Shown here in pieces: positions 15,898-35,623 of a stretch of DNA of 64,000 nt (the first letter of the stretch is position 1; each line of letters begins with the position of its first letter). The stretch spans positions 512,001 through 576,000 of the forward strand of contig CAXMWX010000001.1 in NCBI GenBank assembly GCA_963422205.2, given 5' to 3'. Both the position numbers and the translations under genes were made by a program. This stretch comes from Gammaproteobacteria bacterium. GTDB taxonomy: Bacteria > Pseudomonadota > Gammaproteobacteria > Eutrophobiales > Eutrophobiaceae. Below the pieces are notes generated by a model. It had not been told where the DNA came from, ran no database searches, and saw only the letters and a list, made by a program, of their open reading frames with translations.

Positions 15898-16344
15898 CTA
15901 TGCAGAGGGTTGCAGCCGTATTAACGCTTGCCGTAAATCTTCGGGTATGTTCACCGGCTGGCGCGTTTCTCTGTCCACATACACATGCACAAAATGCCCC
16001 TGTGCCGAGGCGGTCTGCTCGCTGTCTTTAAATAGGCCGATCGCATAGCGCACACTGCTGTTGCCGATGTGTGCTACCCGCAAGCCGGCGGTTACTGAGT
16101 CTGGAAAGCGGATGGGTGAAAAATAATTGCATTGGGTTTCGACCACCAGGCCGATGACTGCACCAGCCACCGGATCGAGTACGCCTTCGGCCAGGAGATA
16201 ATGATTCACGGCGGTATCAAAGTACGCGTAATACACCACGTTGTTGACATGTGCGTAGATATCGTTATCCATCCAGCGAGTCGAGATGGCGATGCGGTAA
16301 GGATACTTGCCTAACGTTGTTTTTCTGATCTTGCCGGTCATCAT
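15898..16344 (-). CDS. Acyl-CoA thioesterase (4HBT/YbgC hot-dog fold)
   Basis: [22 protein letters not shown] motif. Confidence 0.9.
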
Positions 16345-17360
16345 CGGCGCTCATGCGCCAGCAGGTCGATGCCGAATTGACGAAACAGGTGGATCATGTC
16401 AACGAAGACCCAGTTCTCCATAAACAGATCGCCATCACGCTTCCACCAGTCCAGCCCGTTGAAGGCGATGGGGTTGCCTGTTGCCGCCACGCCTTTGTAC
16501 TCGCCAGCATGGGTGGCTTTGACATCGCCCCAGCCAGCGGCGGCGGTGTAGCAACCCTCAGCATACAGTGCATCAATATTGCCGCACAGACGATCAGGGA
16601 AGGCCGTCAGCCAAGGCTGCTGATGGCAGTGTTCAAATGCTTGCAGGCCATCGCAGGCGCCGATACCGCCGGGGCCATACCATTGTATCTCTGGATGGAA
16701 GAAGTCGGCCACGCCCATGCTGCTCAAAGCACGCTGGTCATAGTTGTTCAGGCCATCGAAAATAAAACGCCGGATGTGTTCCAGGCTGTATGCACTCGTG
16801 CTCGCATCTTGCGACTCATGCAACATACCATCGCCCGCATGCGGGGCGGGGTAGCGGCCATCTTTTCCCAGGGCAGGCGGGAGCACGTGAATACCAGCCT
16901 GCTGCATCAGATCAACCAGGTCCAGCAGGCAAAATATTTCTGTTATTTTATCTTGCTGGATTTTGCAGAACTCGCCCCAGCGGATTTTCACCGCTTTGCC
17001 GGTTGCGGCGATGGTCAGATAGTCATGCCTGAAAGTGCCGGTGAATGTGCCAGTACCAGAGACCCAGGTATGCCCATCCCGGGACATATCGCCATCCACC
17101 CGGCCATTTGACTGGCCGCCCATGAAGATGAAGGTATCACGTTTGATATCGGGAAAAGCATGGACAAGCGGCTGCCAGAATTGACGGCTAACCGCCTCAG
17201 CACCTTGCAGCTCATTGATCGGCGCCGGCCCGTGCCAGATAAGATCAGCATCACAAAAGCGGCTGATGGTTTGTTGATACTGCCCGGCATCGGCGGATTC
17301 CAGCCCCTGCCAGAAATCCCGGACTCGTTGTTTGTTCTGTTGGTTCAATGCCGTTGTCAT
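16341..17360 (-). CDS. Double SnoaL/ester-cyclase (NTF2-like) protein #1
   Basis: [34 protein letters not shown]; paralogous to 29304-31386. Start placed at MTTALNQ (GAGGGG RBS). Confidence 0.85.
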
Positions 17361-17568
17361 CGCCGCCCCTCGGAATTTAGCTTTGCAGTAAATATTTACG
17401 CTACGTCTGTAATTAACGATAGCCACAGTCGCCATGTGCATGGCTTTTTGCCTTGCTGTCCATTGCTGATTAAGGAATGCGCCCAAGGAATGCACCCAGG
17501 GTATTCCCCTGGCGTGGTCAGGAAAGAATAGGGGGTGCACTCAAAGCGGTTGCCCGTATCGTTGATGT

Positions 17569-17919
17569 GTGATGAGCGAGCAGCAGCAAAACAACGCAGA
17601 TATAAACGTGATCTCTCTATTTCCGCCCAAAAGCGATGTCAAGACAGACGAAGCCGACCAGCGCCAATTCGCCCGACAACTGCTTATCGGCTTTTGGCTT
17701 ATCGGCCTGGCGATTATCTGCATTGACATCTTCATAGCCTGCGGCTGGTATCCACACAACGCCGCGCCGGTCGCCATGTTTACGCTTGCCAGGACAGGTG
17801 CCCTGCCGCTTGTTACCTTAGGTTATCTCCCTAGTATTTTCTCAACGCCAACCCAGTGGTCTGCCAATCAGCTGGGGCAAGCTGTAGCGCCAAGGCAGAG
17901 TGGCGCACCCAAAAGCTGA
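17569..17919 (+). CDS. Hypothetical small membrane protein
   Basis: One hydrophobic segment (LLIGFWLIGLAIICIDIFIAC); no recognisable family. Confidence 0.3.
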   Translation: MMSEQQQNNADINVISLFPPKSDVKTDEADQRQFARQLLIGFWLIGLAIICIDIFIACGWYPHNAAPVAMFTLARTGALPLVTLGYLPSIFSTPTQWSANQLGQAVAPRQSGAPKS

Positions 17920-17995
17920 CCGGGCAGCAGATGTCAGCCGTGAATAAAAGCGGAAGGGATGAGAACATCCCCTCCGCCACCATCACCGCTGCCAA

Positions 17996-20509
17996 TCAAT
18001 CCCAACTGGCCGCAAAGCGCACGCCAAAGTTGCGCGGATACAGATAACCGGTCTGGACATTATCATCACTGCCGTTATTACCACGCGACAGCACCGCCTC
18101 ATCCTCAATGTTCTCAACAAAGCCTTCCAGCGAGTAGCGCTGGCTGGGCGAGCGCCAGATCAGGCGCAGGTCTGTCTTGGTGAAGCTGCTCTGCTCATGG
18201 CTGGGGTCAATTGCCAACAGGTTGCTTGTGTTATAGCCATCGCTATAGTAGAACTGCACATACGGCGTTAAGGTGCCGTTATCTCCGCCCAGGGCGACCT
18301 CATAAGCAGCACTTAACGTGACCGTGAACTCAGGCGACCAGCCTGGTGTCTCGCCTTCCACATTGATAAAGCTGTCTGTATCGCCACCAAATAGCTGGTA
18401 GGGATTGGTCTGACCGAAGGTGCCGAACTCGGCATTGAGATAGGCGGCTGAGGCCGTCAGAGTCATGTTCTCTGTCGGGTTGTAGATGGTGTCCAGCTCT
18501 ATGCCCCAGGCATCGATCTCGCCGCCATTGCGGCTGTTGGTGATCACATTCCCGGTTTCGACGTTAAGTACCTGGAACTGCGCTAACAGGTTGGTGTACT
18601 CGGTATAGTGGGCGCTGATGTTAAAGCGCATGCTGCCATCGAGCAAGGTGCTTTTAAGGCCGATCTCATAGAGTTGCGATTCCTGCTCGTCTGTGAATGT
18701 GCCGTTGTTGTTGACGGCGCCCGATAAAAACCCGGTTGAGGCCGTGAAATAGATCAGCGCATCGTAATCGGGCAGATCATATTCCAGCCCGGCCTTCCAG
18801 CTGACGTTATTAAACGAGGGGCTCACCGAATTAGCACCTGTGGCAGAGCGGTTATAAGCGAACACATCGCGGGAGAATGCCGGCACCACCAGCGGCGAAT
18901 CACCATTGCTAAACAGCGTGGTGACCGGGCCGTTGGCGGTAAAATTGCTGCCGCCGCCGGTCAGTTTCTTTTTCTCATAGTTATAGCGCGCACCGCCGAT
19001 AAGGCGCAGGTTCTCAAGCACGCTAAACTCCCCTTGCAGGTACAGGCCGAAGGTATCAATCTCGATCCACTGGCTATCGGCGAAGGCGCCGTTCAGGCTG
19101 GTCGCCGCAGAGACTATCGGTGTGCCGTTTTGCAGTGTGAACATCATCCCGTCAGGCCCTGTGACCATGGGGCGAGTGTTATTTTCCTGGGTCTGGTTAA
19201 AAATGGTGAAGCTGAAAAACGTCTTGTCCTGCGAGTAGTAGGCGCCGGATGTCCACTGAAAGGGACTGTCATAATCTGAGGTGAACTGTAATTCCTGCGT
19301 GAAGGACTCGGCGGTCTCATCAAAGCCGCCGACATTGAAAGGCGTTTGACTGTAGTCAAAATCAAAGCCGATGAGGTTTTTAAAATCCGTGTATGAGGTG
19401 ATGGATTTCACCAGCACAGGCCCGGCATCCCAGTTGATCTCCAGGGTGATGTTATCATCATCCAGATCAACCGGCGGGACATAATCCTGGGCCACATCCC
19501 AGGGGCCTGTATCGCCCCGTGGCAATCCATTGGAGCCATTTTGCGGGTTCTGGCAATCTATGACAGAGCCAAGCGGGTCGGTGATGCCATCTGCCCGTGT
19601 GCGCCGGCAGATGTTTCGGTAGCCGAATAGCCCCGCTGAGGTGCCGGACTCCCGAATGCGGGTGTAGCGCAACAGTGCCTCCAGTTCGTCCGATGGTTGG
19701 TATAACACGCTCAACCGTACGCCCTGATCATCCGGTGCGCCCACATCCGGGCCAGCACTGTTTTTCACGAAGCCATCGCCGTTCTCAACGAAGCCGGCCA
19801 GCCGCACGGCGAGTTGATCATTCACGGGCAGGTTCACAAAGCCTTCAAACTGCGTGGTGTTAAAGCGCTCATACCCCACCTCAATGCGGCCAGCGATACC
19901 ATCTAAATCCGGCCGATTTGTATGGAGATTTAATGCACCGGCGAAGGTGTTACGCCCATACAGCGTACCCTGCGGCCCCTTGAGAAATTCAATGCGCTCG
20001 ACATCGAAAAAGGCGCGTGACTGCTGTGAGGCGCGCGGTTTGTATACGCCGTCAACATAGGCGCCAACAATCGAGCCGTTATCATTGAAGGTGTTGGTTG
20101 AATTGGCCCCGCGCACATTGAACTTGGCATCGTTACCGGTATAGGCGAAGTTGACACCCGGCACCAGCAGCTCAATCCGGCTGACATCATCCAGGCCGCC
20201 CCGCTGCATTGCATCCTCACCGAAGGCCGAGATAGACAAGCCGACATCCTGCACATCCTCAGCGCGCTTCTCGGCCGTCACGGTTATCTCCTCCAGCACG
20301 ATAGCCGCGCGGGAGGGGGTCGTGATGGCAAGGCAGAGCAGCAGGATACATGGATAGGGCAGCCGTGCCGCCAGGCTTCGGGGGGGGGGGGGGTGATGAT
20401 ACGCTCGTGCGCCCGGGTTAATCGGCCGCATCAACAGGCGGTGTAGTAATCTGGCCGGGCGTGCCAATGCAGGCAGGTCTGCCCCGGCGGTTTGCAGGTA
20501 GTCAGTCAT
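17996..20509 (-). CDS. TonB-dependent receptor with a C14 tract in the signal-peptide region
   Basis: LEEITVTAEKR, DVERIEFLKGPQGTLYGRNTFAG, C-terminal GVRFAASWD; start placed at MTDYLQ (AAGGGAG RBS). Confidence 0.93.
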   Translation of the reverse strand: MTDYLQTAGADLPALARPARLLHRLLMRPINPGARAYHHPPPPRSLAARLPYPCILLLCLAITTPSRAAIVLEEITVTAEKRAEDVQDVGLSISAFGEDAMQRGGLDDVSRIELLVPGVNFAYTGNDAKFNVRGANSTNTFNDNGSIVGAYVDGVYKPRASQQSRAFFDVERIEFLKGPQGTLYGRNTFAGALNLHTNRPDLDGIAGRIEVGYERFNTTQFEGFVNLPVNDQLAVRLAGFVENGDGFVKNSAGPDVGAPDDQGVRLSVLYQPSDELEALLRYTRIRESGTSAGLFGYRNICRRTRADGITDPLGSVIDCQNPQNGSNGLPRGDTGPWDVAQDYVPPVDLDDDNITLEINWDAGPVLVKSITSYTDFKNLIGFDFDYSQTPFNVGGFDETAESFTQELQFTSDYDSPFQWTSGAYYSQDKTFFSFTIFNQTQENNTRPMVTGPDGMMFTLQNGTPIVSAATSLNGAFADSQWIEIDTFGLYLQGEFSVLENLRLIGGARYNYEKKKLTGGGSNFTANGPVTTLFSNGDSPLVVPAFSRDVFAYNRSATGANSVSPSFNNVSWKAGLEYDLPDYDALIYFTASTGFLSGAVNNNGTFTDEQESQLYEIGLKSTLLDGSMRFNISAHYTEYTNLLAQFQVLNVETGNVITNSRNGGEIDAWGIELDTIYNPTENMTLTASAAYLNAEFGTFGQTNPYQLFGGDTDSFINVEGETPGWSPEFTVTLSAAYEVALGGDNGTLTPYVQFYYSDGYNTSNLLAIDPSHEQSSFTKTDLRLIWRSPSQRYSLEGFVENIEDEAVLSRGNNGSDDNVQTGYLYPRNFGVRFAASWD
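20380..20393 (-). repeat. G14/C14 homopolymer tract inside a CDS
   Basis: 14 consecutive G on the plus strand, encoding HHPPPPR. Confidence 0.95.
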
Positions 20510-20600
20510 TGATGATGCTCCCTTAGTGTTGGGTTTTATTCGGAAAATGTGTGTCAGGTCACTACATGACCCATGACCAGGGCGCATCTTGGTATAAGAT

Positions 20601-20614
20601 GACTTCGAATGCAA
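20601..20614 (-). promoter_or_regulatory. Putative LacI operator, site 1 (TTGCATTCGAAGTC)
   Basis: Core TGCATTCGAAGT found four times upstream of island genes. Confidence 0.75.
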
Positions 20615-21081
20615 ACAATTTATGCACTAAAAATACAAAATAGTTACAGAAGTTGCCAATATACAACAGTTGAGGGCGGTCAACGGCGACCACGGGAAGC
20701 GGCGCAGCGCTAACGGGGCTTGCCGTGTCGGGCTTGTTGGCCGGGCTCGCCTGGCGACCTCCCTTACAACAAACTGTATCGCCACCGGCGTTACGTTCTC
20801 CCGGGGAACGGGCAGGAGGTGACCGACAACATGATAGCGCCTGACTGAACCGTGGTTGCACCCAACAGCGCCATGATGACCTGGGCACTGATGCGCCTGT
20901 CTGACGGCATGCTCTCCTCATGCCCAGAGTGACCCGGTCAGCAGCGATGAGCAATCATATGATACCAGGCACGTACTTGTTGGCCGTTATGAACAGGGGG
21001 ATGATTTTCTCTACAATATGCTTGCGTAGTTTGAGTTCTCATCGTTCAACTATGCAGGAAGCAGCCGCACGTTTGTCAAGG

Positions 21082-21327
21082 TCAACTGTCATTTTGAGCT
21101 TTCGCCAGTTGTACTTCCAGATGGTTATTACGCTGATCGATGATCCTGAGTATATGGTCATCGTCCGCATTCCCGGCAGCGATGTCCGCCAGGGCCAGCG
21201 CTTTACGCAGAACAGCGGCATTGCTGTTTACGCCGAACCCGGCCTGCAATTTCTCAAACATTGCAGCCGCCCCCGGGCCGACCACAAAGCCGATTTCCTG
21301 CTTTGCAGTTTCTGCCTCGCCTGCCAT
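21082..21327 (-). CDS. Small hypothetical protein, possibly a ribbon-helix-helix DNA-binding protein
   Basis: GGAG RBS; beta-alpha-alpha pattern (EIGFVV...AMFEKLQAGFGVNSNAAVLRKALAL). Confidence 0.5.
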   Translation of the reverse strand: MAGEAETAKQEIGFVVGPGAAAMFEKLQAGFGVNSNAAVLRKALALADIAAGNADDDHILRIIDQRNNHLEVQLAKAQNDS

Positions 21328-21481
21328 TGTCTTGATCTCCCAGGGCCAAGAACCTGGCGTATTAGTAAGTAGCGATGCTGATTACGGCAATATTTCACCG
21401 CTACTATCTGCGTCAAACTTCTCTGATTTTAAGGCCACGGGGATAAGGTGTTATTGGCAATTTATGGGCGATTGCCCGGCA

Positions 21482-22228
21482 CTACTGCGCCGTCCAGCCG
21501 CCATCCACCTTGAGGCTGTCACCGGTGATCATCTTTGATCGGGGCGAGGCCAGGAATAAGACGGCCTCGGCCACATCCTCTACCTGGCCGACTTTTCCCA
21601 ACGGGATCCGGCTTAACACAAACGTTTCAAATTCCGGGTTGTCAAACATCGGTCTGGTCATGGGCGTGTCGATAAACGTCGGTGCGATGGCGTTGACACG
21701 AATCCCGGCAGGGGCCAGCTCGACAGCCATCGCCCTGGTCAGGCCTTCGATGGCATGTTTGGTCATGCAATACACCGTGCGACCGGGCGAGCCGACATGT
21801 CCCATCTGGGATGACATATTGATGATAGTGCCCGGGCGCTGGTCTCTCAGCATGACCCTGGCCGCCGATTGTGCGGTGCGAAAAGCGGCCTCCACATTGA
21901 GCGTGATCATCGTTTGCAATCTCTCCGGTGTGACCTCAACAAATGGCTCCGGCTGGTTGGTGCCCGCATTGTTGACCAGGATATCGAGCTGCATCAGCGC
22001 TTCCAGCCGGTTGTAGAAGCTGGCTGTCCGTACATCCATCGGCCAGGTCTCAATGCGGTCGGGCGCATGCGCTTTGACTGCCGCCAATTCATCGCCGCTG
22101 CGGGCGACAGCGATAATGCAGGCCCCGGCATCCGCCAGATGCTCCACACAGGCCCGGCCGATACCTCGGCCTGCCCCTGTCACCAGCGCCACTTTACCCT
22201 CAAGGTCTGCTCTGTGTTTGTCTGTCAA
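21482..22228 (-). CDS. Short-chain dehydrogenase/reductase (HpsO-like context)
   Basis: TGAGRGIG, NNAG, YCMTK catalytic motif; divergent from the HpsN-like gene. Confidence 0.92.
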   Translation of the reverse strand: MTDKHRADLEGKVALVTGAGRGIGRACVEHLADAGACIIAVARSGDELAAVKAHAPDRIETWPMDVRTASFYNRLEALMQLDILVNNAGTNQPEPFVEVTPERLQTMITLNVEAAFRTAQSAARVMLRDQRPGTIINMSSQMGHVGSPGRTVYCMTKHAIEGLTRAMAVELAPAGIRVNAIAPTFIDTPMTRPMFDNPEFETFVLSRIPLGKVGQVEDVAEAVLFLASPRSKMITGDSLKVDGGWTAQ

Positions 22229-22263
22229 GTCGCCCCCGCCTGTCCGTCTGCTGCATGATCAAA

Positions 22264-22277
22264 TTGCATTCGAAGTA
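22264..22277 (+). promoter_or_regulatory. Putative LacI operator, site 2 (TTGCATTCGAAGTA)
   Basis: In the SDR/hpsN divergent gap; TTGCAT also resembles a -35 element. Confidence 0.78.
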
Positions 22278-22324
22278 TAATATCGCTTAGGATACATGGC
22301 TACACAAGCATGAGAGAAACAGGC

Positions 22325-23605
22325 ATGGCAATCTATCTGAAAAATGGCAAATCCGGCGTTGAGGTGGCGAGTCAGGATGCGGGCGTGAGAAAAACGGTTG
22401 AAGCGATTCTGGATGACATCAGCGGGCGGGGCGATGCGGCATTACATGAATACTCGGCCAGGTTTGATAACTGGTCGCCTGAGAGGTTTCGTTTGAGCGC
22501 CGAGGAGATCAGCGCCTGTTACGATGAGGTGCCGCAACAGGTCATAGCGGATATTGAGTTCGCACAAACGCAGATTCGCAATTTTGCCCAGCACCAGCGT
22601 GCGGCGCTGCAGGATGTGGAGGTAGAGACGCTGCCCGGTGTCATCCTGGGGCATAAGAATATTCCGGTGAACAGCGTCGGCTGTTATGTGCCGGGCGGCA
22701 GGTATCCGATGGTGGCATCGGCACACATGAGTGTGGTGACGGCCAAGGTCGCCGGCGTTAAGCGCATCATCGCCACCGCCCCGCCCAATCAGGGCAAGCC
22801 CCATCCGGCCATCGTGGTGGCCATGGATAAGGGGGGGGCGGATGAGATTTACTGTATTGGCGGGGTGCAGGCGGTTGGCGGCATGGCGTTGGGTACGGAA
22901 TCCATCGCGCCCGTGGATATGCTGGTGGGGCCGGGTAATGCGTATGTGGCGGAGGCCAAGCGCCAGCTTTTTGGTCGGGTCGGTATCGATCTCTTTGCCG
23001 GGCCGACAGAGACCCTGGTGATTGCTGATGAGATAGTGGATGCGGAGTTGTGTGCCGCCGATCTGCTTGGGCAGGCCGAACATGGACCGAATTCCCCGGC
23101 GATCCTGCTGACTGACTCAGAAAAGCTGGCCAGAGAGACCCTGGCCGAGATAGAGCGGCAACTACAGATATTGCCAACCGGTGATATTGCCGGGCAGGCC
23201 TGGGCAGATTATGGTCAGGTCATTGTCTGTGATACGTGCGAGGACATGCTTGCGGTGGCGAACGATATCGCTTCAGAGCATGTGCAGGTGATGACAAAAG
23301 ACCCGGACTATTTTCTTCAGAACATGACCAATTACGGTGCCTTGTTTCTGGGCGCCGAGACCAATGTTTCCTATGGCGATAAAGTCATCGGCACCAATCA
23401 TACGCTTCCCACCCGAAAGGCTGCTCGTTATACTGGCGGCTTGTGGGTGGGTAAATTTATCAAAACCTGCACCTACCAGAAGATAACAAAAGAGGCGGCC
23501 GTGGTGGTGGGCGAGTATTGTTCTCGTCTGTGCGAACTGGAGGGTTTTATGGGACACAAAGAGCAGGCGGATATACGCCTGCGCCGATTTGCCGGCCAGT
23601 ATTGA
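22325..23605 (+). CDS. hpsN: Histidinol-dehydrogenase paralogue, HpsN-like (sulfopropanediol 3-dehydrogenase family)
   Basis: [45 protein letters not shown]; GDKVIG instead of the HisD GDYxxG; no his operon nearby; adjacent LacI and SDR. Confidence 0.72.
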
Positions 23606-23607
23606 CA

Positions 23608-25398: not shown

Positions 25399-25415
25399 CC
25401 CGTAAGGAGCACGCA

Positions 25416-27334: not shown

Positions 27335-27365
27335 ATCGGGCAACCGGCTGCCGGTTATGACAACA

Positions 27366-28277
27366 TCATAAGTTCAACGCATAAAACTGATTCGCTGTGC
27401 CGAAGAACAGGGCCTGTTGTTCATCTGCACTGAATGCACGGCTGATGTCAAGGTAAGCCTGCCAGAGCGTCTGATAATCCCGATGCAGCTTGTCAACCGG
27501 GAAGTTTGATCCAAACATGCAGCGTTCTGGTGTAAAGATATCGATCACGCTTTCAATAACAGGCCGTATGCTGTTGGTTGTCCAGTGATGATCGAACATA
27601 CCAAAACCTGAGAGCTTGCAGAAGATGTTGGGTAATTGTGCCAGCCTCGCCAGCTCGGTGCGCCAGAAATCCAGCGCCTGCCTGCTTTGATCAAACGGCG
27701 AGCCACAATGACAAAGGGCAATTTTCGTATCGGCCACGGAGCGCAGGACATCATAGGTCGGGGAGATGTATTCCGGGATGAGTTGCAGATCAAATGACAG
27801 GCCGTGCTGTGCCAGTTTACCCAGATTGTCTGCCCAGGCGGTGCTGGTCAGTAAGCCATAGCTGTTGGTTAAGCGATCCTCGGCGGGTGCTCGTCCGATG
27901 ATCTGCCGGATCCCTCGAAGGTTGGTAAATACTTTTTGCTGTTCCAGCTGTGCTATCGCATCGGCTGTCGACAGATCACAAAAGGCGACTATCGCATGCG
28001 GAAACCCCCTGCCAGTTGCCGATTCGGCCACAGATTGCAACCAGCACGTCTCCGCCACTGCCTGATCTTCCTGCGTGCCTGCTTGTATGTGTACCGAGCC
28101 AGCAATGGGCAGGTCTGCCATATCGGCAAAGAAATCTTTAATGAGGTAATTTTTTTGTATCGGTGTGGGGTCGCCGAAGAATCGCCTTACACCTTTGGCC
28201 ATCAGCCAGGGATAATGACAGGCTTGCAGATCCCAGAGATGATGATGGGCATCGATGATCTTCGTGATGGTATGCAC
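27366..28277 (-). CDS. Amidohydrolase_2 (lactonase-like)
   Basis: IDAHHHLWD, GIRQ, CHCGSP, KLSG, FGSNFPVD. Confidence 0.88.
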   Translation of the reverse strand: MHTITKIIDAHHHLWDLQACHYPWLMAKGVRRFFGDPTPIQKNYLIKDFFADMADLPIAGSVHIQAGTQEDQAVAETCWLQSVAESATGRGFPHAIVAFCDLSTADAIAQLEQQKVFTNLRGIRQIIGRAPAEDRLTNSYGLLTSTAWADNLGKLAQHGLSFDLQLIPEYISPTYDVLRSVADTKIALCHCGSPFDQSRQALDFWRTELARLAQLPNIFCKLSGFGMFDHHWTTNSIRPVIESVIDIFTPERCMFGSNFPVDKLHRDYQTLWQAYLDISRAFSADEQQALFFGTANQFYALNL

Positions 28278-28289
28278 GATGCCGGGGTA

Positions 28290-29285
28290 TCACGGCGTGT
28301 AGATCTGTCTTAACACGGCCAGCTCATCGAATACCGTCCACTCTTCTGTAACACTGCCCTGATACAGACGCCAGTGTGTGCCGACAAGGAACATGAGCCG
28401 CCTGCCAGAGGCCGCACCGTAGATGCCTGCCTGATCATGTTTGCCTGTCAACACCCAGCGTATGGCAACCTCTGTGGTATCATCATCGATACCAACCGAG
28501 CAGATATGATCAACGCTCGCCTGTGTGCCTGACAAGGTGGCATGCAGTTCACTTATCCCCGCCTTGATCGGTGCATGTCCTGTCATTTCCCGACCAGCCG
28601 GCCCGTGCAGGCAGGCATCGGGTGTGTACACCTTCTCAACTGTATCAATATCCCGTCTGTGCCATAGACTGGCAAAGACCTGCCGGATAAATGTGTTGAG
28701 ATCAGTTTTTGCATCGGCCAGGCTGGCGGTTGTCGGTAAGGGCGGCTGGCTGGCTACCCGCTCGATCTCACGTGCCAGCCAGTCATGCACTGCCTGTTCA
28801 TGCTGGTTTTCCATGGCCAGCCGATGTGCAACGGCGTGCGGGTCAAGCCCCAGTTGCTGCACCAGCCCCATGTTGTCGCGCATCAGCCATTCTTCATGGA
28901 TGTGATTCTCCCTCGCCGCACAGTCAGCGATGGTACGCACCGTGGCCTGTCTGCCGGTTGGCGGGCCGAACTCGCTGTGTCCCAGGTTAGTCATGGCCGG
29001 GCTGATGATGCGATGCGAAGAGTAATGGCCGGCGGTATCATCACCCGTACAGATCACGGCCTCGGTATCGAGTCGTCTGTCTGGAAATGCCGCCAGGGTT
29101 TTGATGGTGTTGTTAATGACGGCCTCGCTGCCATAGACCGGGCCGCCCAGGGTATGTATGACGGCATCTTCTGCATAGTAGCGTGCGATGGCGCCGATAT
29201 TTCTCTCCTTCCATATCCGATCGGTAATGCGCTTTATATAATCCGCATAATCCGTAAACTCTGCATCAAAACCTTTCATAGCCAC
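28290..29285 (-). CDS. Double SnoaL/ester-cyclase protein #2 (divergent type)
   Basis: ITDRIWKER, TLAAFPDR, SSHRI, EEWLMRDN, EEWTVFDELA. Confidence 0.85.
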   Translation of the reverse strand: MAMKGFDAEFTDYADYIKRITDRIWKERNIGAIARYYAEDAVIHTLGGPVYGSEAVINNTIKTLAAFPDRRLDTEAVICTGDDTAGHYSSHRIISPAMTNLGHSEFGPPTGRQATVRTIADCAARENHIHEEWLMRDNMGLVQQLGLDPHAVAHRLAMENQHEQAVHDWLAREIERVASQPPLPTTASLADAKTDLNTFIRQVFASLWHRRDIDTVEKVYTPDACLHGPAGREMTGHAPIKAGISELHATLSGTQASVDHICSVGIDDDTTEVAIRWVLTGKHDQAGIYGAASGRRLMFLVGTHWRLYQGSVTEEWTVFDELAVLRQIYTP

Positions 29286-29303
29286 TCTTCTCCCACTGAC
29301 AGA

Positions 29304-30278
29304 TTATCTGCCGGCATAGCCGTTGTGCATGTGTTGAAAGACATCGTGCCCCATTTGTTTTAACAGGTGAATCAGATCGATACTGACCCAGTTCTCCTGC
29401 AGCAACTCGCCCTCACGCCGCCAGAAGTCCATGACCCGCATGGTCACTTGCCGGTTAGAAGCAGGCCGGCCCAGCCAGCCATCACCGGTATGGGTGGCGG
29501 ACATGTGCGGCCAGCCGCCCGTTGCTGCATAATTGCCCTCGGCCACATAGTTCAGGTAGTTGTCCACGGTGCGGTCGGGAAAGCCTTGCAGGAAGGGGGC
29601 CTGATGCTGTTCACGAAAACCGCTTAAACCACGGGTGGTGCCGATCCCGGCCGGCCCGTACCACATAAAATCCGGGTGCCAGTAGTTTTCCTGATCCATG
29701 CTGAGTAATGATTTGCCATCATACTGCGCCAGCCCGGCGTGCATGGCCTTGACCAGCCGTAGGCTCTTGTCACTTTGCCCGGTGCTGGCATTGTCAGGGG
29801 TCAGCCCGTCCATGCTGGAAGGCGGCATGACCAGGCCATAATGACGATGCCCAGGCCGAAGCGGGTTGACATTCGCCTGATACATGGCATCGATAAAATC
29901 AGGAATAACATAACCGGCACTTATCCTGTTATTTTCAATCAGCAGCATCTCCGCATAGCGTAGATAAAGCACATCGCCTGTCGGTGTTATATCAAACAAC
30001 GGTTGCGTGAATGTGCCGATGAAATAACCGGTTGTATTCACCCAGTGCTGCCCGGCATATTCACCGGCAAGCATGATAAACGGCTTGTATTCAATGTCCG
30101 GCAAGGCCAGCTTCAACGGCTGCCAGTAGTGCGTCAGAAACTGCCGAGGCCCCTGCAACTCATTGACCGGATGGGCAGCACACCATGTCAGCTCATCACT
30201 GAGATGGCGTAATGCGGTAGCCGTATCATCCCCCGTGAGCGCTTGATAAAACGCCGTCACTACAGTTTTATTGTGCAT
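29304..30278 (-). CDS. Double SnoaL/ester-cyclase protein #3
   Basis: HPVNELQG, WQPL, WYGPAGIG, GFPDR, MRVMDFWRR, ENWVSID. Confidence 0.85.
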   Translation of the reverse strand: MHNKTVVTAFYQALTGDDTATALRHLSDELTWCAAHPVNELQGPRQFLTHYWQPLKLALPDIEYKPFIMLAGEYAGQHWVNTTGYFIGTFTQPLFDITPTGDVLYLRYAEMLLIENNRISAGYVIPDFIDAMYQANVNPLRPGHRHYGLVMPPSSMDGLTPDNASTGQSDKSLRLVKAMHAGLAQYDGKSLLSMDQENYWHPDFMWYGPAGIGTTRGLSGFREQHQAPFLQGFPDRTVDNYLNYVAEGNYAATGGWPHMSATHTGDGWLGRPASNRQVTMRVMDFWRREGELLQENWVSIDLIHLLKQMGHDVFQHMHNGYAGR

Positions 30279-30312
30279 ATTTTCCTGTCAGTCATGGTCA
30301 AAAGCAGCCGGG

Positions 30313-31386
30313 CTAACATTGCTGCTGCACGTTCGCCATAATATCCACATCCATCTGCAACAGGATGTCGATGATATCGATCGGCACCCAGTTCTCGCGT
30401 ATCAGGCCGGCATCACAGAGATAAAAATCCATCACGCGCATGTTGATATGACGGCTGGTAGGGCCTGTTCCAAGCCAGTTGCCACCGGTATGTTTTGCCA
30501 CCACACTGGGCCAGCCGGAGGTCGCCGTATATTTACCATCACCAATCTGCACATAATGATTACTGCCACCGCTACTGCGTTTTGGAAAAGCGATACGAAA
30601 AGGCCGTTGATGACAATCCACAAACCCCGCTAACCCGCGGGCGGTACCGATGCCACAGGGCCCATACCACATCATTTTTGGATGCCAGTAATTGACCTGC
30701 GACATGGTGAGTAAGGCATGGCGTTCGATGATCGTGTTGTCCAGTGATTTCTGCATAGCCAGCGTGAGTGCCAGATTGCTGGCGGATTCTGCGGCCTCTT
30801 GTTCTGTAAGCACAATGCCATCTGTCGTCACAGGGCCCGGCCACATCTCCTCAGCGCCCAAAGAGGGCGGCAAGGGCCAGAAGCCGGCCTGGCGAATCAC
30901 ATCCAGCACATCAAGCAGCACGGTACTCATGATGATCTTCTCATCACGTAACTGATGAAACTCGCCATAGCGGATATAGATCACACCACCGCTTGCCGGA
31001 ATGCCCAGCCAGTCCTGTTCAAATCTGCCAACGTAATGACCCACAGCGCCGACATAATCATGCGCCTTGTACGTGCCGCCGATAAGGATAGTGTCACGCC
31101 GTTCCAAATCCGGAAAAGCACACAATAAAGGCGCCCATACGACCTGCTCTATGGCATCAATACCATCTATCTCATTCATGGGATGAGAGCCGCGCCAGTG
31201 AGCATCCTGGTGATATGCGGCATGCAGGCATTGCTGTAACGTGTCCTTTGATGCACTGGCGATATTATCCAGCAGGTGTTTAACCCGCTTTTTATTTTTT
31301 AATGTCAGTGATTCATCAGGCATTAACTTGGCAGGTGTTTTAATAATGCGTGCATGTTCTACAGACTTTGCTGATCTTGATGGCAC
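30313..31386 (-). CDS. Double SnoaL/ester-cyclase protein #4
   Basis: HPMNEIDG, AFPDLERR, WYGPCGIG, MRVMDFY, ENWVPID. Confidence 0.85.
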   Translation of the reverse strand: MPSRSAKSVEHARIIKTPAKLMPDESLTLKNKKRVKHLLDNIASASKDTLQQCLHAAYHQDAHWRGSHPMNEIDGIDAIEQVVWAPLLCAFPDLERRDTILIGGTYKAHDYVGAVGHYVGRFEQDWLGIPASGGVIYIRYGEFHQLRDEKIIMSTVLLDVLDVIRQAGFWPLPPSLGAEEMWPGPVTTDGIVLTEQEAAESASNLALTLAMQKSLDNTIIERHALLTMSQVNYWHPKMMWYGPCGIGTARGLAGFVDCHQRPFRIAFPKRSSGGSNHYVQIGDGKYTATSGWPSVVAKHTGGNWLGTGPTSRHINMRVMDFYLCDAGLIRENWVPIDIIDILLQMDVDIMANVQQQC

Positions 31387-31402
31387 AGATATTGGTCGCT
31401 CA

Positions 31403-33010
31403 TCATATCAGTCTCTCAAAGCAAAACAGGAAGGCAACGATCAGCACAAAAAACACCAGCAGAAGATAACTGCTGTTATCTACTCTGCCGGGAACCAGGT
31501 ACCAGCCGTTTTCTTTTTCGGCGATATTTTCCTGTTTAAATTTTGCTATCTGCCCGACCACGGTATAAGGCGAGTAATTTTTTTGTCTGCCATCTATCAG
31601 CAAGCTGCTGCTGATGGTTACAATCACGCTGACAATCAAACCGATCGCACAATACCACGGCCAGGCAACATCGGTATAAGCCGCCACTAACGCAACAGCA
31701 ATAAAAGCCGCCGCCGTGCCGACCAGCAGACCTTTCTCGGTGGCTTGTTTGGAGAGAAACCCCAACACGTACATGCCGAGTTGTGCGCCGATAAAAAAAG
31801 AGCCGACTTTACTTAAAATCTCCAGCACTGAGCCTTCGCTGCGGGTATACAGCAGGGCAGGGATAATAATCAATACCGCAAATATCCCCGTCAGGCCGCG
31901 CGTGACCTTCAGGTAATGTTCGGGTGTGGCATCCGCTTTGATATATTTCTGATAGAAGTCGATGGTGGCGACAGTGGATAGTGAATTGAAGGCCGAATCC
32001 AGGCTCGACATGGAGGCCGCCATGACCGCAGCAGCGATAATACCCATCAGGCCGGGCAAACCATAATCGGTGACAAATTGCAGGATGATGGTGTTACCGT
32101 TGGCAAATTCCCGGCCACCATAGTAACTGTAAAACAGGATCCCTAACAGGATATACAGCAAATAAATAAAGAAGGCCAGATACCCCATCAGCAGGTAAGA
32201 TTTTTTGGCATCACCGATATCCCTGGCAGCCAGTGTTCTTTGCACCATCATCTGATTGGTGCCATAGACAGTAATATGGAACACGGTCATGGCGATCACC
32301 CCCGACCAGATCGTGGTTACCTGGCTGAGATCAAATGAAAAATTCAGGGGATTGGTTTTTCCCTGTGCCTTTAGCTCCAGCAGGGTTTCATGCAGCGGCA
32401 AGCTCATCTGGCTGAACAGGGCATAGACGATGATGATCGTGCCAACGAACAAGACCCCCGCCTGTATCACGTCAGTCCATATCACGGCCGTGATACCACC
32501 AAGCGCAGTATAAACAAGTGCAATGATGGTGACGATAAAGATGGCATGTACGACATCAAGGCCGGTGATGAAGGCCAGCACCAGCGAGGTTGCATACAAT
32601 ACGGCCCCCGAGCTGAGTGTTTGTGACAGCATCCAGATACAGGAAATAACCCCCCTGGCTTTGCTGCCAAATCGTTTTTCGATGTACTCATAAATTGATG
32701 CCACACCGCTGTTATAGAAAAAGGGAAAAAACAGGCTGATGACAACAAAAATGACGATGGGATAATTGAGATGAATGGCGATAACCGACAGACCTTCCGT
32801 GTAAGACCAGGCGGGCGCACCCAGAAAAGTGAGGGCGCTGACATAGGTGGCGATCACCGAAATGCCGATTGCCCACCAGGGCGTGGTCTTTTTCCCTAAG
32901 TAGAAATCCTGTGCCGTATTGATTTTTTTGCCGAGAAAATATCCCAACAGCAGATTGGCAATAATGTAGACGATGAGAATTGCCCAGTTAAGTGTGCCAA
33001 ATTCAGCCAT
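31403..33010 (-). CDS. Sodium:solute symporter (SSS family)
   Basis: Multi-TM; SALTFLGAP, GGITAVIWTDVIQ, QMMVQR, AASMSSLDS. Confidence 0.93.
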   Translation of the reverse strand: MAEFGTLNWAILIVYIIANLLLGYFLGKKINTAQDFYLGKKTTPWWAIGISVIATYVSALTFLGAPAWSYTEGLSVIAIHLNYPIVIFVVISLFFPFFYNSGVASIYEYIEKRFGSKARGVISCIWMLSQTLSSGAVLYATSLVLAFITGLDVVHAIFIVTIIALVYTALGGITAVIWTDVIQAGVLFVGTIIIVYALFSQMSLPLHETLLELKAQGKTNPLNFSFDLSQVTTIWSGVIAMTVFHITVYGTNQMMVQRTLAARDIGDAKKSYLLMGYLAFFIYLLYILLGILFYSYYGGREFANGNTIILQFVTDYGLPGLMGIIAAAVMAASMSSLDSAFNSLSTVATIDFYQKYIKADATPEHYLKVTRGLTGIFAVLIIIPALLYTRSEGSVLEILSKVGSFFIGAQLGMYVLGFLSKQATEKGLLVGTAAAFIAVALVAAYTDVAWPWYCAIGLIVSVIVTISSSLLIDGRQKNYSPYTVVGQIAKFKQENIAEKENGWYLVPGRVDNSSYLLLVFFVLIVAFLFCFERLI

Positions 33011-33156
33011 GTCTGCAACGCATACCGGATTCTCTAGTCGTTTGTTTCATATCGTTATTTTTATATTGCATTGCTCTTGACAGCGATTGGCATGGCGCAA
33101 ATCTCGCCGCATTGTTACTGTCCGCTAGAGCTTCATTCATGACTGGGGTATAGTTG

Positions 33157-33170
33157 TACTTCGAATGCAG
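33157..33170 (-). promoter_or_regulatory. Putative LacI operator, site 3 (CTGCATTCGAAGTA)
   Basis: Upstream of the SSS-SnoaL operon; same 12-bp core. Confidence 0.75.
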
Positions 33171-33346
33171 AATCTATTCAAGTAAAAATTGCGATATCAG
33201 CAGGATACAATTCTCACAGTAACAAGAAACGACTTGCATGCAAAAGCAGATAAAAATGAGCATTAATCAAGCGCATATCAGCCCCTCTTATCGCCCAGGA
33301 ATGCCAATCTTTTACGTGATACCCCGTGTATGTTGGTAGAATAGTA

Positions 33347-33360
33347 TTGCATTCGAAGTA
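33347..33360 (+). promoter_or_regulatory. Putative LacI operator, site 4 (TTGCATTCGAAGTA)
   Basis: Upstream of the cupin gene; identical to site 2. Confidence 0.78.
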
Positions 33361-33409
33361 AATTATCTCTGATCATGTATTTTTTTACGGAAGCAGGTGT
33401 AATATCACG

Positions 33410-34429
33410 ATGAGTAACAGGCACAATCAGGCGGACCTGGCGCAGCGGCTCGTTCGCTACCGGGATTTGATCCCCTGCACCACGGCATTCATTGATACCA
33501 GGACACCGGGTAACCAGAAAGAAAACTTCACCATCATCGGCCCCGGGGTAGCGGAGAGCCCGGAGCAATACGTACACATTAATATACCGCATGGTTTTAA
33601 CATAGGCGGCGTCAGGCAGCAGCCCCATTGTGTCAATTCCCAGCACAGCCACGAGACGGCGGAGGTGTTCATTATCCAGAACAGCGAATGGGCGTTTCGC
33701 TGGGGGGTAGATGCTGATGAGGGTGAAATTGTGCTTGGCCCGGGCGATGTGATCTCCATACCGACACAGGTCTTCCGCGGTTTTGAAAATGTGGGCAAGG
33801 GGACCGGTTATATGTGCTCGGTGCTGGGTGGGGATGATCCGGGGCGGGTTACCTGGGCGCCCGTGGTCTTTGAAATGGCAGCGGCACATGGCCTGATCCT
33901 GCTGGAAAACGGCCAGCTTGTCGATACCACCAAAGGCGAGACTGTCCCTGAAGGTCTGTCGGCCATGCCAGTGACTTCTGAGGCAGAGATTAACCGCATG
34001 CGTCATCTTACGATGCAGGAGATGGCGGGCTGTGTGTATGTTATGAGCCATGCCAGAGCGAAGGCCAAGACAGTGCTGACCGAGCATAATGCCTGTGAAG
34101 AGGTACCGGTGATCGGCCCTGCCAACCCGGCTGAAAAGATTGCCGCCGGCAAAATGAACTGGCAGCATGGTTTTCATCTGCGTTGCCTGATCATGCCGCC
34201 CGCTGGCGAGATCGCCGCCCATGCACGATTGGAAGAAGAGGTGATTTACGTCTACCAGGGTGAATTGGCTATTGCATGGGAGCAGGGACAATTGAGCTTG
34301 AAGCGCGGCGATGTGATCACCCTGCCGAAAAATTTATCTCGCCGTCTTATCAATGCGAGCGGCAAGACAACCACAGCTTACATCGTTCGCGGGGGTGACC
34401 GGCCAGCAGCACCACAGTGGGGCGATTGA
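33410..34429 (+). CDS. Bicupin-domain protein
   Basis: QHSHETAEVF (HxHxxxE), LGPGDVISIP; second cupin HARLEEEV...RGDVITLP. Confidence 0.85.
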   Translation: MSNRHNQADLAQRLVRYRDLIPCTTAFIDTRTPGNQKENFTIIGPGVAESPEQYVHINIPHGFNIGGVRQQPHCVNSQHSHETAEVFIIQNSEWAFRWGVDADEGEIVLGPGDVISIPTQVFRGFENVGKGTGYMCSVLGGDDPGRVTWAPVVFEMAAAHGLILLENGQLVDTTKGETVPEGLSAMPVTSEAEINRMRHLTMQEMAGCVYVMSHARAKAKTVLTEHNACEEVPVIGPANPAEKIAAGKMNWQHGFHLRCLIMPPAGEIAAHARLEEEVIYVYQGELAIAWEQGQLSLKRGDVITLPKNLSRRLINASGKTTTAYIVRGGDRPAAPQWGD

Positions 34430-34534
34430 TCTCATCTTGCCCCTCCCTGGTGGCAAACCTGTCTCACAGGCGAGCGGCATCCGTGCTATAGTCGTTTGCA
34501 AGTCAAACGATGATGATCTGATCTTGCCGGATTT

Positions 34535-35623
34535 ATGAGTAACAGTGCGCGAGTGGCGGTGATTGGCACCAGTTATTATGCTGATGTCATGCACCTGGCG
34601 GCATTGCAGAGTCACCCTGATGCTGACATAGCGGCTATTTGTGGGCGCAACCAACAACGTGCCCAGCGATTGGCTGAGAAATATCATATTCCTGTGATGT
34701 ATACCGATTATCAGGATGTGTTCAGCGATAACAGTCTGGATGCGGTCATTATTGCTGTGCCGGATGATCTGCATTATCCGCTTACCTTGGCAGCCGTTGA
34801 TGCCGGCCTGCATGTGATCTGTGAAAAACCGCTGGCACAAAACCTGGAACAGGCACGCAGGATGTGTGACCGGGCTGCTCGGTCAGATGTGATCACGATG
34901 ACTTATTTTACCTGGCGCTGGCTGCCGCATTGTGAATACATCAAGCGCCTGATCGATAGCGGTTATATCGGCCATTGTTTTCATGCAGAACTTGGTTATC
35001 TGAGTGATTATGGGCTGAGTCGGGCGTATGCCTGGCGCTGGGATGCCACCCGTGCCCTGGGTGTATTGGGTGATCTGGGTTCGCATATCATTCATCTGCT
35101 GCAATGGTATCTGGGCGATATCACCTCTGTGTCAGCACAGATAAAAACCTGCGTGGAGAAAACCGGCATGGATGGAAATACGATGCCAACAGCAAATGAC
35201 TTTGCCCGGCTCAATCTGCAATGCCAGCAGGGTACAGAGGTGGCGATCACGGTGAGTGCGGTGGCCGATATCGGTGATCATGGACAGCAGCAGCGCCTTG
35301 AGTTTTATGGGGATGCGGGCATATTACAAGCCCGATTCGATCTGAAAAATGGCTATCATCTGTATGGCAAGCGCCATACCGATGCGGCGATAAAGGAACT
35401 GCCTGTGCCGGAGGATATTTTGCAGGGGATCCCGCAGGACATGCTGTTTACAGCACAGCGCCGCCGGGTATTTACTGAAAAAAATGTCGGCACCCGTTTG
35501 TTTATAGACGCTGTTTCCAGGGGCAAGCCGGTGCAGCCGGATTTACACAGCGGCTATCAGGTGCAGCGTGTGATTGATGCCGCTGTACGCGCCCATGCCG
35601 AAGGTGAGCCGATGTACCTGTAA
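34535..35623 (+). CDS. Gfo/Idh/MocA oxidoreductase
   Basis: VAVIGT, HVICEKPLA, GDLGSHIIHL. Confidence 0.92.
   Translation: MSNSARVAVIGTSYYADVMHLAALQSHPDADIAAICGRNQQRAQRLAEKYHIPVMYTDYQDVFSDNSLDAVIIAVPDDLHYPLTLAAVDAGLHVICEKPLAQNLEQARRMCDRAARSDVITMTYFTWRWLPHCEYIKRLIDSGYIGHCFHAELGYLSDYGLSRAYAWRWDATRALGVLGDLGSHIIHLLQWYLGDITSVSAQIKTCVEKTGMDGNTMPTANDFARLNLQCQQGTEVAITVSAVADIGDHGQQQRLEFYGDAGILQARFDLKNGYHLYGKRHTDAAIKELPVPEDILQGIPQDMLFTAQRRRVFTEKNVGTRLFIDAVSRGKPVQPDLHSGYQVQRVIDAAVRAHAEGEPMYL

Follow-up and report, generated by a model that had tools for sequence, protein, structure and literature searches.

Results

Gene content of the island

The window analyzed here is a 64,000-nucleotide stretch of a gammaproteobacterial genome of the family Eutrophobiaceae (assembly GCA_963422205.2, contig CAXMWX010000001.1, positions 512,001 to 576,000 of the forward strand; genome size 2.99 Mb, 98%-complete). 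At positions 15898..35623 it holds a gene island built around a paralogue of histidinol dehydrogenase (HisD) that belongs to the HisD/HpsN family. Searches of the window proteins with Pfam and NCBIfam profiles confirmed all gene types of the island at their coordinates (Table 1) and bore out the gene inventory listed in an earlier reading of this DNA (the original prediction): a short-chain dehydrogenase/reductase (SDR), a LacI-family repressor, an outer-membrane receptor and a sodium symporter, a pyruvate aldolase, two putative lactone or ester hydrolases, a methionine synthase (MetE)-like protein, a bicupin, a Gfo/Idh/MocA oxidoreductase and four proteins with two SnoaL domains each. Polyketide synthase (PKS), nonribosomal peptide synthetase (NRPS), ligase or exporter genes were not among the Pfam matches of the island.

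The genes are tightly packed. The hydrolase, MetE-like and HpcH genes overlap successively by 16-19 bases, and the minus-strand operon runs from the symporter as first gene through SnoaL D, C and B to the amidohydrolase with gaps of 12-34 bases. The receptor open reading frame (ORF) reaches too far at its 5' end; a stretch resembling a signal peptide stops near residue 103, and the real start lies further downstream. The helix-turn-helix (HTH) of the repressor begins at residue 49 of its ORF, placing the real start near 23653. The 870 bases at 20615-21481, between receptor and SDR gene, hold just a 150-amino acid ORF (20920-21372) and have operator-like site 1 at their left end. Neither this ORF nor an antisense ORF at 33278-34291 matched a Pfam family; both are probably not genes. 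A search of sequencing runs for the stretch retrieved two DNA runs from one study and no RNA run.

Table 1. Genes and predicted regulatory elements of the island, in window coordinates
Feature	Position	Strand	Remarks
4HBT/YbgC-like thioesterase	15898-16344	-	Pfam 4HBT_2, 70 bits
Double-SnoaL protein A (tandem NTF2 fold)	16341-17540	-	two SnoaL stretches; likely start near 17363
Terminator-like hairpin	17949-17978	-	3' of receptor gene; 13 pairs, 8 G-C, T-rich tail
TonB-dependent outer-membrane receptor	17996-20614	-	plug and beta-barrel domains
Operator-like site 1, TTGCATTCGAAGTC	20601-20614	-	1 mismatch; faces receptor gene; inside 5' end of the nominal receptor ORF
SDR	21482-22228	-	PF13561, 200.8 bits; divergent from HisD paralogue
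Operator-like site 2, TTGCATTCGAAGTA	22264-22277	+	exact; in the 80-base divergent region between SDR and HisD paralogue
HisD paralogue	22310-23605	+	HisD/HpsN family; PF00815, 481.5 bits
LacI-family repressor	23518-24642	+	LacI HTH and Peripla_BP domains; HTH at ORF residues 49-92
Alpha/beta-fold serine hydrolase	24688-25398	+	PcaD-like, TIGR02427
MetE-like protein, single-domain	25380-26567	+	PF01717, 51.2 bits
HpcH/HpaI class II pyruvate aldolase	26552-27334	+	Pfam, 111.5 bits
Amidohydrolase (Amidohydro_2), lactonase type	27366-28277	-	Pfam, 121.2 bits
Double-SnoaL protein B	28290-29285	-	distinct subtype
Double-SnoaL protein C	29304-30278	-	Pfam
Double-SnoaL protein D	30313-31386	-	Pfam
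SSS sodium:solute symporter	31403-33010	-	Pfam and NCBIfam
Operator-like site 3, CTGCATTCGAAGTA	33157-33170	-	1 mismatch; faces symporter operon
Operator-like site 4, TTGCATTCGAAGTA	33347-33360	+	exact; 50 bases 5' of bicupin gene
Bicupin	33410-34429	+	Pfam
Gfo/Idh/MocA NAD(P) oxidoreductase, sugar or cyclitol dehydrogenase type	34535-35623	+	Pfam and NCBIfam

An operator-like motif shared by four transcription units

A 14-base motif, TTGCATTCGAAGTA, is repeated in the intergenic regions of the island 5' of four transcription units, and each copy points to the operon downstream of it. The units that carry a site are the receptor gene; the SDR gene together with the divergent set HisD paralogue-LacI-hydrolase-MetE-like-aldolase; symporter-SnoaL D/C/B-lactonase; and bicupin-Gfo. 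At up to two mismatches the window contained six matches versus 0.24 expected from shuffled sequences; the two matches with two mismatches lie within CRISPR spacers. In the whole genome the four island sites were the only matches with at most one mismatch, which suggests that most of the island forms one LacI-type regulon.

The 12-base core of the motif was also found in 20 of 80 related loci from other species that carry orthologues of the dehydrogenase. These loci, 1.46 Mb in total, gave 36 core matches at up to one mismatch and 13 exact ones, where approximately 6 and 0.2, respectively, are expected by our own arithmetic for uniform base composition. The matches clustered in loci whose gene sets are most complete, and in five of them (L005, L035, L038, L040, L068) the core lies directly 5' of the bicupin gene. 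With a repressor gene in the locus and a predicted operator shared by the promoters that it would control, there is good evidence at the level of sequence for a single repressor-controlled regulon, in line with the self-contained, co-regulated catabolic unit of the original prediction.

The HisD paralogue belongs beside HpsN but lacks its sulfonate-binding motif

A search against solved structures gave the highest scores for the sulfopropanediol dehydrogenase HpsN (8v35 and 8wwe, 396 and 384 bits), whereas histidinol dehydrogenases reached at most 286 bits. Since a better-scoring hisD (515.9 bits versus 467.8 bits for the island copy) sits on another contig (C7), the island gene is a paralogue. 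The Gln/His/His/Asp zinc ligands, the catalytic Glu and His and the Lys after the zinc-binding Asp align identically with HpsN of Cupriavidus pinatubonensis (CpHpsN, 8v35), so that the window protein combines the Histidinol_dh fold with the zinc and catalytic residues of HpsN. In the description of CpHpsN these are the zinc ligands Gln248, His251, Asp352 and His411' and the catalytic Glu318/His319, and the same account defines HpsN by the motif G-R-Y-A/S-H, the final His126 of which binds the sulfonate, and HisD by the motif G-S-A-P-L (PMC11382572). The window protein has G-R-Y-P-M at this place, with Met in the position of His126. The pattern G-[KR]-[YF]-P-[LM] was present in all 81 orthologous loci (80 from other species and that of the window), none of which had the His. 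In addition, the window protein keeps a G-D-K motif, in contrast to G-D-Y in the genome's own HisD.

Compared with His-bearing representatives, the window protein showed amino acid sequence identities of 41-47%; for the HisD of its own genome the value was 34%. A FastTree phylogeny was calculated from 75 full-length representatives at 50% identity, four orthologues, the window protein and the genome's own HisD; a further 75 of the 150 representatives returned were fragments or fusions outside 395-470 residues and were excluded. In this tree, the His-bearing clade (support 0.99) excludes the clade of the window protein (0.82), and the two are neighbours inside a G-D-K group (0.78), although the support for a direct sister link between them is weak (0.23). 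The paralogue thus falls beside HpsN and departs from biosynthetic HisD, from which it also differs in being neither the best hisD match of the genome nor a carrier of G-D-Y; this separation had been proposed as a check of the original prediction.

We conclude from the conserved residues that the HisD paralogue should be an active four-electron alcohol-to-acid dehydrogenase. The retained Lys argues for an anionic substrate, and the enzyme more likely acts on a carboxylated substrate or intermediate and converts its hydroxymethyl group to a carboxylate.

Conservation and distribution

Orthologues of the dehydrogenase that are 65-85% identical come from Alpha-, Beta- and Gammaproteobacteria and from one metagenome-assembled genome of the Acidobacteria; the cultured carriers include Marinomonas arenicola JCM 15737, M. 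phaeophyticola, Vibrio fortis, Zobellella maritima, Sphingomonas faeni and Devosia oryzisoli. The enzyme is widespread in public sequence data, with at least 8000 candidates returned by a word-based search. The best 120 of them were 77-100% identical; among these, the name given was histidinol dehydrogenase (NCBI) or, in two entries, sulfopropanediol 3-dehydrogenase (JGI). Clustering of the ORFs from the 80 related loci and the window (81 sources, many of them short contigs, so that all counts are lower bounds) revealed relatives of the SDR in at least 58 sources, of LacI in at least 41, of the bicupin in at least 25, of the HpcH aldolase in at least 19 and of double-SnoaL B in at least 18. 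The hydrolase and the MetE-like protein had relatives in at least 17 sources each, the receptor in at least 13, SnoaL A/C/D in at least 10, the amidohydrolase in at least 6 and the symporter in at least 5. Further recurring neighbours were GntP-like permeases (11), parts of CUT1-type ATP-binding cassette (ABC) transporters (10-13), carriers of the major facilitator superfamily (MFS, 8), amidases (8), fumarylacetoacetate hydrolase (FAH) family hydrolases (7 and 6), aldehyde dehydrogenases (7) and RraA-like aldolases (6).

Around the conserved core of dehydrogenase, SDR and pyruvate aldolase, the accessory enzymes and transporters are exchanged from locus to locus. The layout in Vibrio fortis is TRAP-LacI-HpcH on one side and paralogue-SDR-bicupin-hydrolase on the other (TRAP, tripartite ATP-independent periplasmic transporter); in Marinomonas arenicola it is ABC-three SnoaL-LacI-paralogue-SDR-bicupin-RraA aldolase, and in Sphingomonas receptor-paralogue-SDR-MetE-like-HpcH. 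The RraA-like aldolase stands in place of HpcH in the Marinomonas and Devosia loci. Transport is served by TRAP, CUT1-type ABC, GntP-like or MFS systems or by the SSS symporter with the receptor, a swapping that is expected if one class of substrate is imported by different lineages; the TRAP and GntP-type carriers point to an anionic substrate.

At the other end of the range are minimal modules. In an Acetobacteraceae locus (L022:8769-14796) the order is LacI-paralogue-3HCDH-SDR-GntP-like, where 3HCDH denotes a 3-hydroxyacyl-CoA dehydrogenase-like gene. A Pseudomonas locus (L031:8803-17652) comprises LacI, the paralogue, a 3HCDH-like gene, an SDR relative and a 467-amino acid ORF without Pfam match. 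No aldolase, cupin, MetE-like or SnoaL gene was found in these two loci.

The combination was also counted in 400 other genomes drawn evenly from the class. The paralogue was present in 11 and double-SnoaL B in 11; nine genomes carried both, in five of them within 7 kb on one contig. By our own arithmetic approximately 0.3 joint carriers are expected by chance, a comparison whose formal test is weakened by kinship among the genomes. The co-occurrence of the HisD paralogue with SnoaL proteins in other genomes, on which the original prediction depended, was therefore observed. Within its own family the paralogue was found in 3 of 24 other genera, and it was missing from the one other genome of the same genus (92% complete). 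The patchy distribution in family and class indicates an accessory trait. One orthologue from the same family (G014:C123:5792-7063, 85% identity) contains a single in-frame TGA and may be a pseudogene or reflect an assembly error.

Properties of the accessory enzymes

The MetE-like protein consists of the catalytic barrel alone. Its H259, C261, E293 and C357 align with the zinc ligands of 1ypx and were invariant in 17 of 17 orthologues, so the zinc site of MetE and core-MetE proteins is retained. The motifs G-S, D-G-E and L-D, which we take to be homocysteine-binding positions of MetE, were invariant as well. The best NCBIfam match (NF003317) scored 107.8 bits versus a cut-off of 406 bits, which does not qualify the protein as a methionine synthase.

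In the bicupin, H79, H81 and E85 of the N-terminal cupin are invariant, and the C-terminal cupin is poorly conserved. Sequence searches retrieved no relative of solved structure, and the ESM Atlas returned only clusters named 'cupin domain-containing protein'. The structural model (predicted local distance difference test, pLDDT, 89.7) was nearest to oxalate decarboxylase, MncA and quercetin dioxygenases at a template modelling (TM) score of approximately 0.5; such values are those of generic bicupins and name no reaction.

Nine SnoaL-domain matches were found in the genome. Eight of them, including one that narrowly missed the Pfam cut-off, lie in the four island proteins. None of the four double-SnoaL proteins has a signal peptide. 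Protein A clusters with its paralogues C and D, and B is 16-19% identical to A, C and D. The AlphaFold model of B (pLDDT 96.1) was compared with solved structures using Foldseek. The top two-domain folds were MonBI-MonBII and Lsd19, at whole-chain TM scores of 0.31-0.34 and root-mean-square deviations of 16-17 A, and single domains matched IdmH, SnoaL2, AclR and limonene epoxide hydrolase at TM scores of 0.7-0.83; these folds, too, name no reaction.

The remaining enzymes have distant relatives of known function. The serine hydrolase, with the nucleophile elbow G-L-S-M-G-G, was closest to the 3-oxoadipate enol-lactonase PcaD (TIGR02427, 105 bits versus a cut-off of 255.85). For the amidohydrolase the best NCBIfam match was L-fucono-1,5-lactonase (103 bits versus 400) and the best solved relative 4dlf; for the HpcH aldolase the best solved relative was 2-dehydro-3-deoxyglucarate aldolase (4tv5, 107.8 bits). 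The Gfo protein was nearest to levoglucosan and scyllo-inositol dehydrogenases.

Left edge of the island and neighbouring genes

The left boundary of the island is uncertain. No operator was detected 5' of the unit of double-SnoaL A and thioesterase, even when three mismatches were allowed. With the hairpin at 17978-17949 in between and no site of its own, this unit is tied to the island solely by adjacency and by the paralogy of SnoaL A with C and D. The two genes share a 4-base overlap at the stop of SnoaL A. Relatives of the thioesterase (49-51% identity) occurred in 2 of the 80 related loci, and its identity to a 4HBT gene beside the Vibrio locus was 29%; its membership in the regulon is doubtful.

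Just left of the island lie a second TonB-dependent receptor (10944-13514, plus strand) and a fused 3HCDH-enoyl-CoA hydratase (ECH) gene with the dehydrogenase domain first (13795-15858, plus strand). The fusion protein is 27% identical to the 3HCDH-like protein of the minimal loci. An extension of the island to the left was rejected, as neither the fusion (27%) nor the thioesterase (29%) is similar enough to these counterparts to count as conserved.

To the right of the island, a very large CRISPR array at 39751-51450 accounts for 12 kb that lack long ORFs; its 35-base repeat core recurs in 162 perfect copies, with a period of 71-75 bases. It is adjoined by a type I-G cas set (51954-63996), which includes a Cas4-Cas1 fusion, Cas3 with an extension protein and Cas8g2; proteins of the GSU0053/GSU0054 families occur twice in this set.

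Discussion

Proposed function of the regulon

We consider it reasonably probable that the island is one LacI-controlled catabolic regulon, through which a small, polar metabolite with a carboxylate group is taken up and broken down to pyruvate and a second acid. The substrate is best read as a small, polar, carboxylated, methyl-bearing and probably cyclic metabolite. It would enter through the TonB-dependent receptor and the sodium symporter. The core of the reaction chain is suggested by the most conserved trio, i.e. the paralogue, the SDR and a class II pyruvate aldolase of the HpcH or RraA type. The HisD/HpsN-family enzyme would oxidize a -C(OH)-CH2OH unit to a 2-hydroxy acid, the SDR, like HpsO next to HpsN, would act on the hydroxyl or oxo group alongside, and the aldolase would release pyruvate from a 4-hydroxy-2-oxo acid.

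The accessory steps, which vary between genomes, may serve to funnel related precursors into the substrate of the core. Among them, the MetE-like zinc-thiolate enzyme could transfer a methyl group to homocysteine, the metal-binding bicupin could cleave or rearrange a ring, the two hydrolases could open a lactone or an ester, and Gfo could oxidize a ring hydroxyl. The four cytoplasmic tandem-NTF2 proteins might process several variants of the substrate. The ring or ester opening envisaged in the original prediction fits this content of lactonases, aldolase and cupin.

One candidate for the substrate is offered by the mycosporine-like amino acids and gadusol, sunscreen compounds that abound in algae, cyanobacteria, fungi and lichens. 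That the regulon is a bacterial pathway consuming these compounds is a chemically coherent but tentative idea to which we give a low probability. The gadusol core is an O-methyl enol ether in which two CH2 groups flank a C(OH)(CH2OH) carbon; loss of the methyl group would turn it into an aci-reductone, a kind of compound cleaved by cupin dioxygenases. In this scheme, the tandem-NTF2 paralogues and the hydrolases would remove the amino-acid substituents, and the MetE-like protein would O-demethylate the enol ether onto homocysteine to form methionine, a reaction that would be unprecedented. The HpsN-like dehydrogenase would then convert the ring hydroxymethyl group to a carboxylate, and the bicupin with O2 would cleave the aci-reductone to 4-carboxy-4-hydroxy-2-oxoadipate (or to citrate with loss of C2). 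4-Carboxy-4-hydroxy-2-oxoadipate is a known substrate of RraA/HpcH-type aldolases, and the island aldolase would split it to pyruvate and oxaloacetate. Searches of full-text literature, whose scope did not include subscription journals and bioRxiv supplements, retrieved no paper on this gene set or on bacterial mycosporine catabolic genes, which agrees with the earlier statement that no described pathway with this gene set was known to its author. The accessible text of a 2026 review on cyclitols (PMC12904256) is silent on mycosporine catabolism.

Several observations weigh against the catabolic scheme or parts of it. Among the island enzymes, curated NCBIfam cut-offs were reached only by the HisD-family domain model and the SSS superfamily model, and the order of steps and every accessory role assigned above are suggested by family membership. 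We know of no O-demethylation by an enzyme of the MetE family, and matches of the bicupin orthologues to acireductone dioxygenase (7 of 25, best E value 0.002) and 3-hydroxyanthranilate 3,4-dioxygenase (5 of 25) in Pfam were near noise. The operator-like motif has only a weak palindrome and may in part represent a common promoter element; the missing site at the SnoaL A-thioesterase unit counts on the same side. Sugars, more than mycosporines, are the usual substrates of systems with LacI regulators and SGLT-like or CUT1 transporters. Sphingomonas-type loci with MetE-like and aldolase genes had no bicupin within 10 kb, and many orthologues of the dehydrogenase reside in minimal loci that lack aldolase, MetE-like, cupin and SnoaL genes. 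Judging by these minimal loci, which may point to its simplest substrate, the dehydrogenase could use a simple hydroxy acid instead of a ring compound.

Alternative substrates and readings

An alternative is a sugar-acid route, starting from a small polyhydroxy acid or 2-keto-3-deoxy sugar acid that may be O-methylated or lactonized, such as the C4-C6 aldonates erythronate and threonate or acids of the 3-deoxy-D-manno-oct-2-ulosonic acid (Kdo), 5-O-methyl-Kdo or sialic type. Taken by itself we regard this alternative as possible yet unlikely. Gfo would then oxidize a ring hydroxyl, the lactonases would open lactones, the paralogue would convert CH2OH to give an aldaric-type acid, and a GarL-like aldolase would yield pyruvate. 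The LacI-type repressor and the SGLT-like symporter of the island, the CUT1 ABC, TRAP and GntP-like carriers of related loci, and minimal loci in which the dehydrogenases are accompanied by a GntP-like permease alone all suit such a compound, as do the nearest relatives of the aldolase (2-dehydro-3-deoxyglucarate aldolase), the amidohydrolase (L-fucono-1,5-lactonase) and Gfo (levoglucosan and scyllo-inositol dehydrogenases). The TRAP binding protein of the Vibrio locus was nearest to 7bbr, 4p9k, 4pdh and 4pdd at approximately 150-176 bits, some of which were presumably solved with D-erythronate or pantoate; this may serve as a lead only. However, Pfam searches detected no sugar-acid dehydratase (enolase-superfamily, IlvD/Edd), kinase or glycosidase in the island, all of the family matches named lie far below equivalog cut-offs, and the four tandem-NTF2 proteins, the MetE-like protein and the bicupin are left without a role. 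We judge sugar acids and mycosporines about equally likely as substrates; the former fit the regulator, the transporters and the minimal loci better.

Other compounds were considered and set aside. Ascorbate breakdown, suggested by the oxalate-decarboxylase-like bicupin, the lactonases and threonate, was dropped as it had no other support. Homarine or picolinate, head groups of betaine lipids, methylated inositols and lignin-derived dimers would each leave several conserved genes without a role.

The original prediction had tentatively linked the island to sulfonates and proposed that it perhaps feeds a C3 product like 2,3-dihydroxypropane-1-sulfonate (DHPS). That the dehydrogenase acts on DHPS, on a DHPS-like fragment or on cysteinolic acid released from a larger sulfonated substrate is improbable in our view. 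HpsN proteins are admittedly its closest solved relatives, the sulfonate-contacting Lys after the zinc-binding Asp is kept, the adjoining SDR belongs to the Pfam family of HpsO, and JGI names two orthologues sulfopropanediol 3-dehydrogenase. Against this stand the Met in place of the sulfonate-binding His, which is absent from all 81 orthologues, and the separation from the His-bearing clade. The neighbourhood, too, departs from that of HpsN, with the HpsO-family SDR (PF13561) as the part present: Pfam searches detected no HpsP-type zinc-dependent alcohol dehydrogenase (PF00107/PF08240) in the island, the best genome match to Xsc reached 337 bits versus a cut-off of 676 bits, and no SuyB domain (PF04295) was found in the genome (CuyA was not searched for). 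The Met in the motif and the lack of an island HpsP and of genomic Xsc and SuyB make a DHPS-like C3 product unlikely, and the substrate is probably one other than a sulfonate or DHPS.

Eight kilobases upstream of the island, at 3887-8215 on the minus strand, the window holds a molybdopterin oxidoreductase set. It encodes a 915-amino acid protein (best match PhsA-like, far below cut-off), a 223-amino acid 4Fe-4S protein and a 306-amino acid protein without family match. In sizes and order the set resembles a cytoplasm-facing sulfite dehydrogenase of the SoeABC type; this PhsA/Psr-like set may have such a function, which would favour a sulfonated substrate.

Least probable of all is that unrelated operons have come together by chance or that the island is a biosynthetic cluster with SnoaL polyketide cyclases: the closest folds (SnoaL, AknH, IdmH, Lsd19) are those of biosynthetic enzymes, the SnoaL A-thioesterase unit has no operator and gene content varies widely between loci, but a genome-unique predicted operator is shared by four promoters, two uptake systems and a repressor are present without PKS, NRPS, ligase or exporter, and co-occurrence is strong across 11 families of the class.

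Implications

The gene island is common to many marine and soil bacteria, and its distribution points to a widely available, unrecognized substrate in marine and soil carbon flow. New in this work are the genome-unique operator-like motif that links four units, the separation from HpsN by motif and tree, the co-occurrence count in the class and the reaction scheme. The annotations histidinol dehydrogenase and sulfopropanediol dehydrogenase are both probably wrong for the enzyme studied here, and metagenomic counts that use such annotations as a DHPS marker may therefore be inflated. The island also holds three types of enzymes without assigned chemistry, namely the tandem-NTF2 proteins, a catabolic MetE-like zinc enzyme and a bicupin with one metal site. 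The operator-like sequence and the existence of cultured carriers make the question of the substrate directly testable.

Comparison with known systems

The MetE-like protein shares the His-x-Cys, Glu and Cys zinc ligands with core MetE and the MetE barrel (1ypx, 2nq5, 3l7r). Unlike MetE, it has no N-terminal folate-binding barrel, and its gene is embedded in, and translationally overlaps with, catabolic genes.

The polyether epoxide hydrolases/cyclases Lsd19 and MonBI-MonBII have two NTF2-fold domains per chain, as does SnoaL B. The low whole-chain TM scores and high deviations suggest that the domains are arranged differently in SnoaL B. To Lsd19/MonB, SnoaL, AknH, IdmH and limonene epoxide hydrolase the tandem-NTF2 proteins are 12-18% identical, and their context here is catabolic and cytoplasmic.

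The lower protocatechuate 4,5-cleavage/gallate pathway (LigC, LigI, LigJ, LigK) ends with 4-carboxy-4-hydroxy-2-oxoadipate. Both this pathway and the island use a Gfo/Idh/MocA dehydrogenase, a lactonase-type Amidohydro_2 protein and a class II pyruvate aldolase in like roles, the aldolase being HpcH here and RraA-like in the Marinomonas and Devosia variants. LigI is presumably a member of the amidohydrolase subgroup that also contains L-fucono-1,5-lactonase, which is the top family match of the island amidohydrolase. The likeness is one of families: in contrast to the Lig pathway, no LigAB- or GalA-type dioxygenase, 4-oxalomesaconate (OMA) hydratase or tautomerase was identified, Pfam searches detected no LigB-type domain in the island, and the matches to LigI, LigJ and LigK stay at family level, short of orthology. 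LacI regulation and sugar-type transporters, moreover, are not features of aromatic pathways.

Among the closest known systems is also the DHPS catabolism of Cupriavidus pinatubonensis and roseobacters, in which HpsN (8v35, 8wwe) works with HpsO/HpsP and with SuyAB, Xsc or CuyA. The island differs from it in the motif G-R-Y-P-M for G-R-Y-A/S-H and in having no HpsP and no TRAP or MFS Hps transporter, and MetE-like, bicupin, tandem-NTF2 and aldolase genes do not appear in the gene list for DHPS clusters given in section 2.8 of the HpsN study (PMC11382572). The fold, the zinc and catalytic residues and the Lys after the zinc-binding Asp are the same, an SDR of the HpsO Pfam family is adjacent in both, and HpsN forms the clade nearest to the island dehydrogenase in the tree. 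The type of reaction is probably also the same, i.e. the four-electron oxidation of a CH2OH group beside a C-OH.

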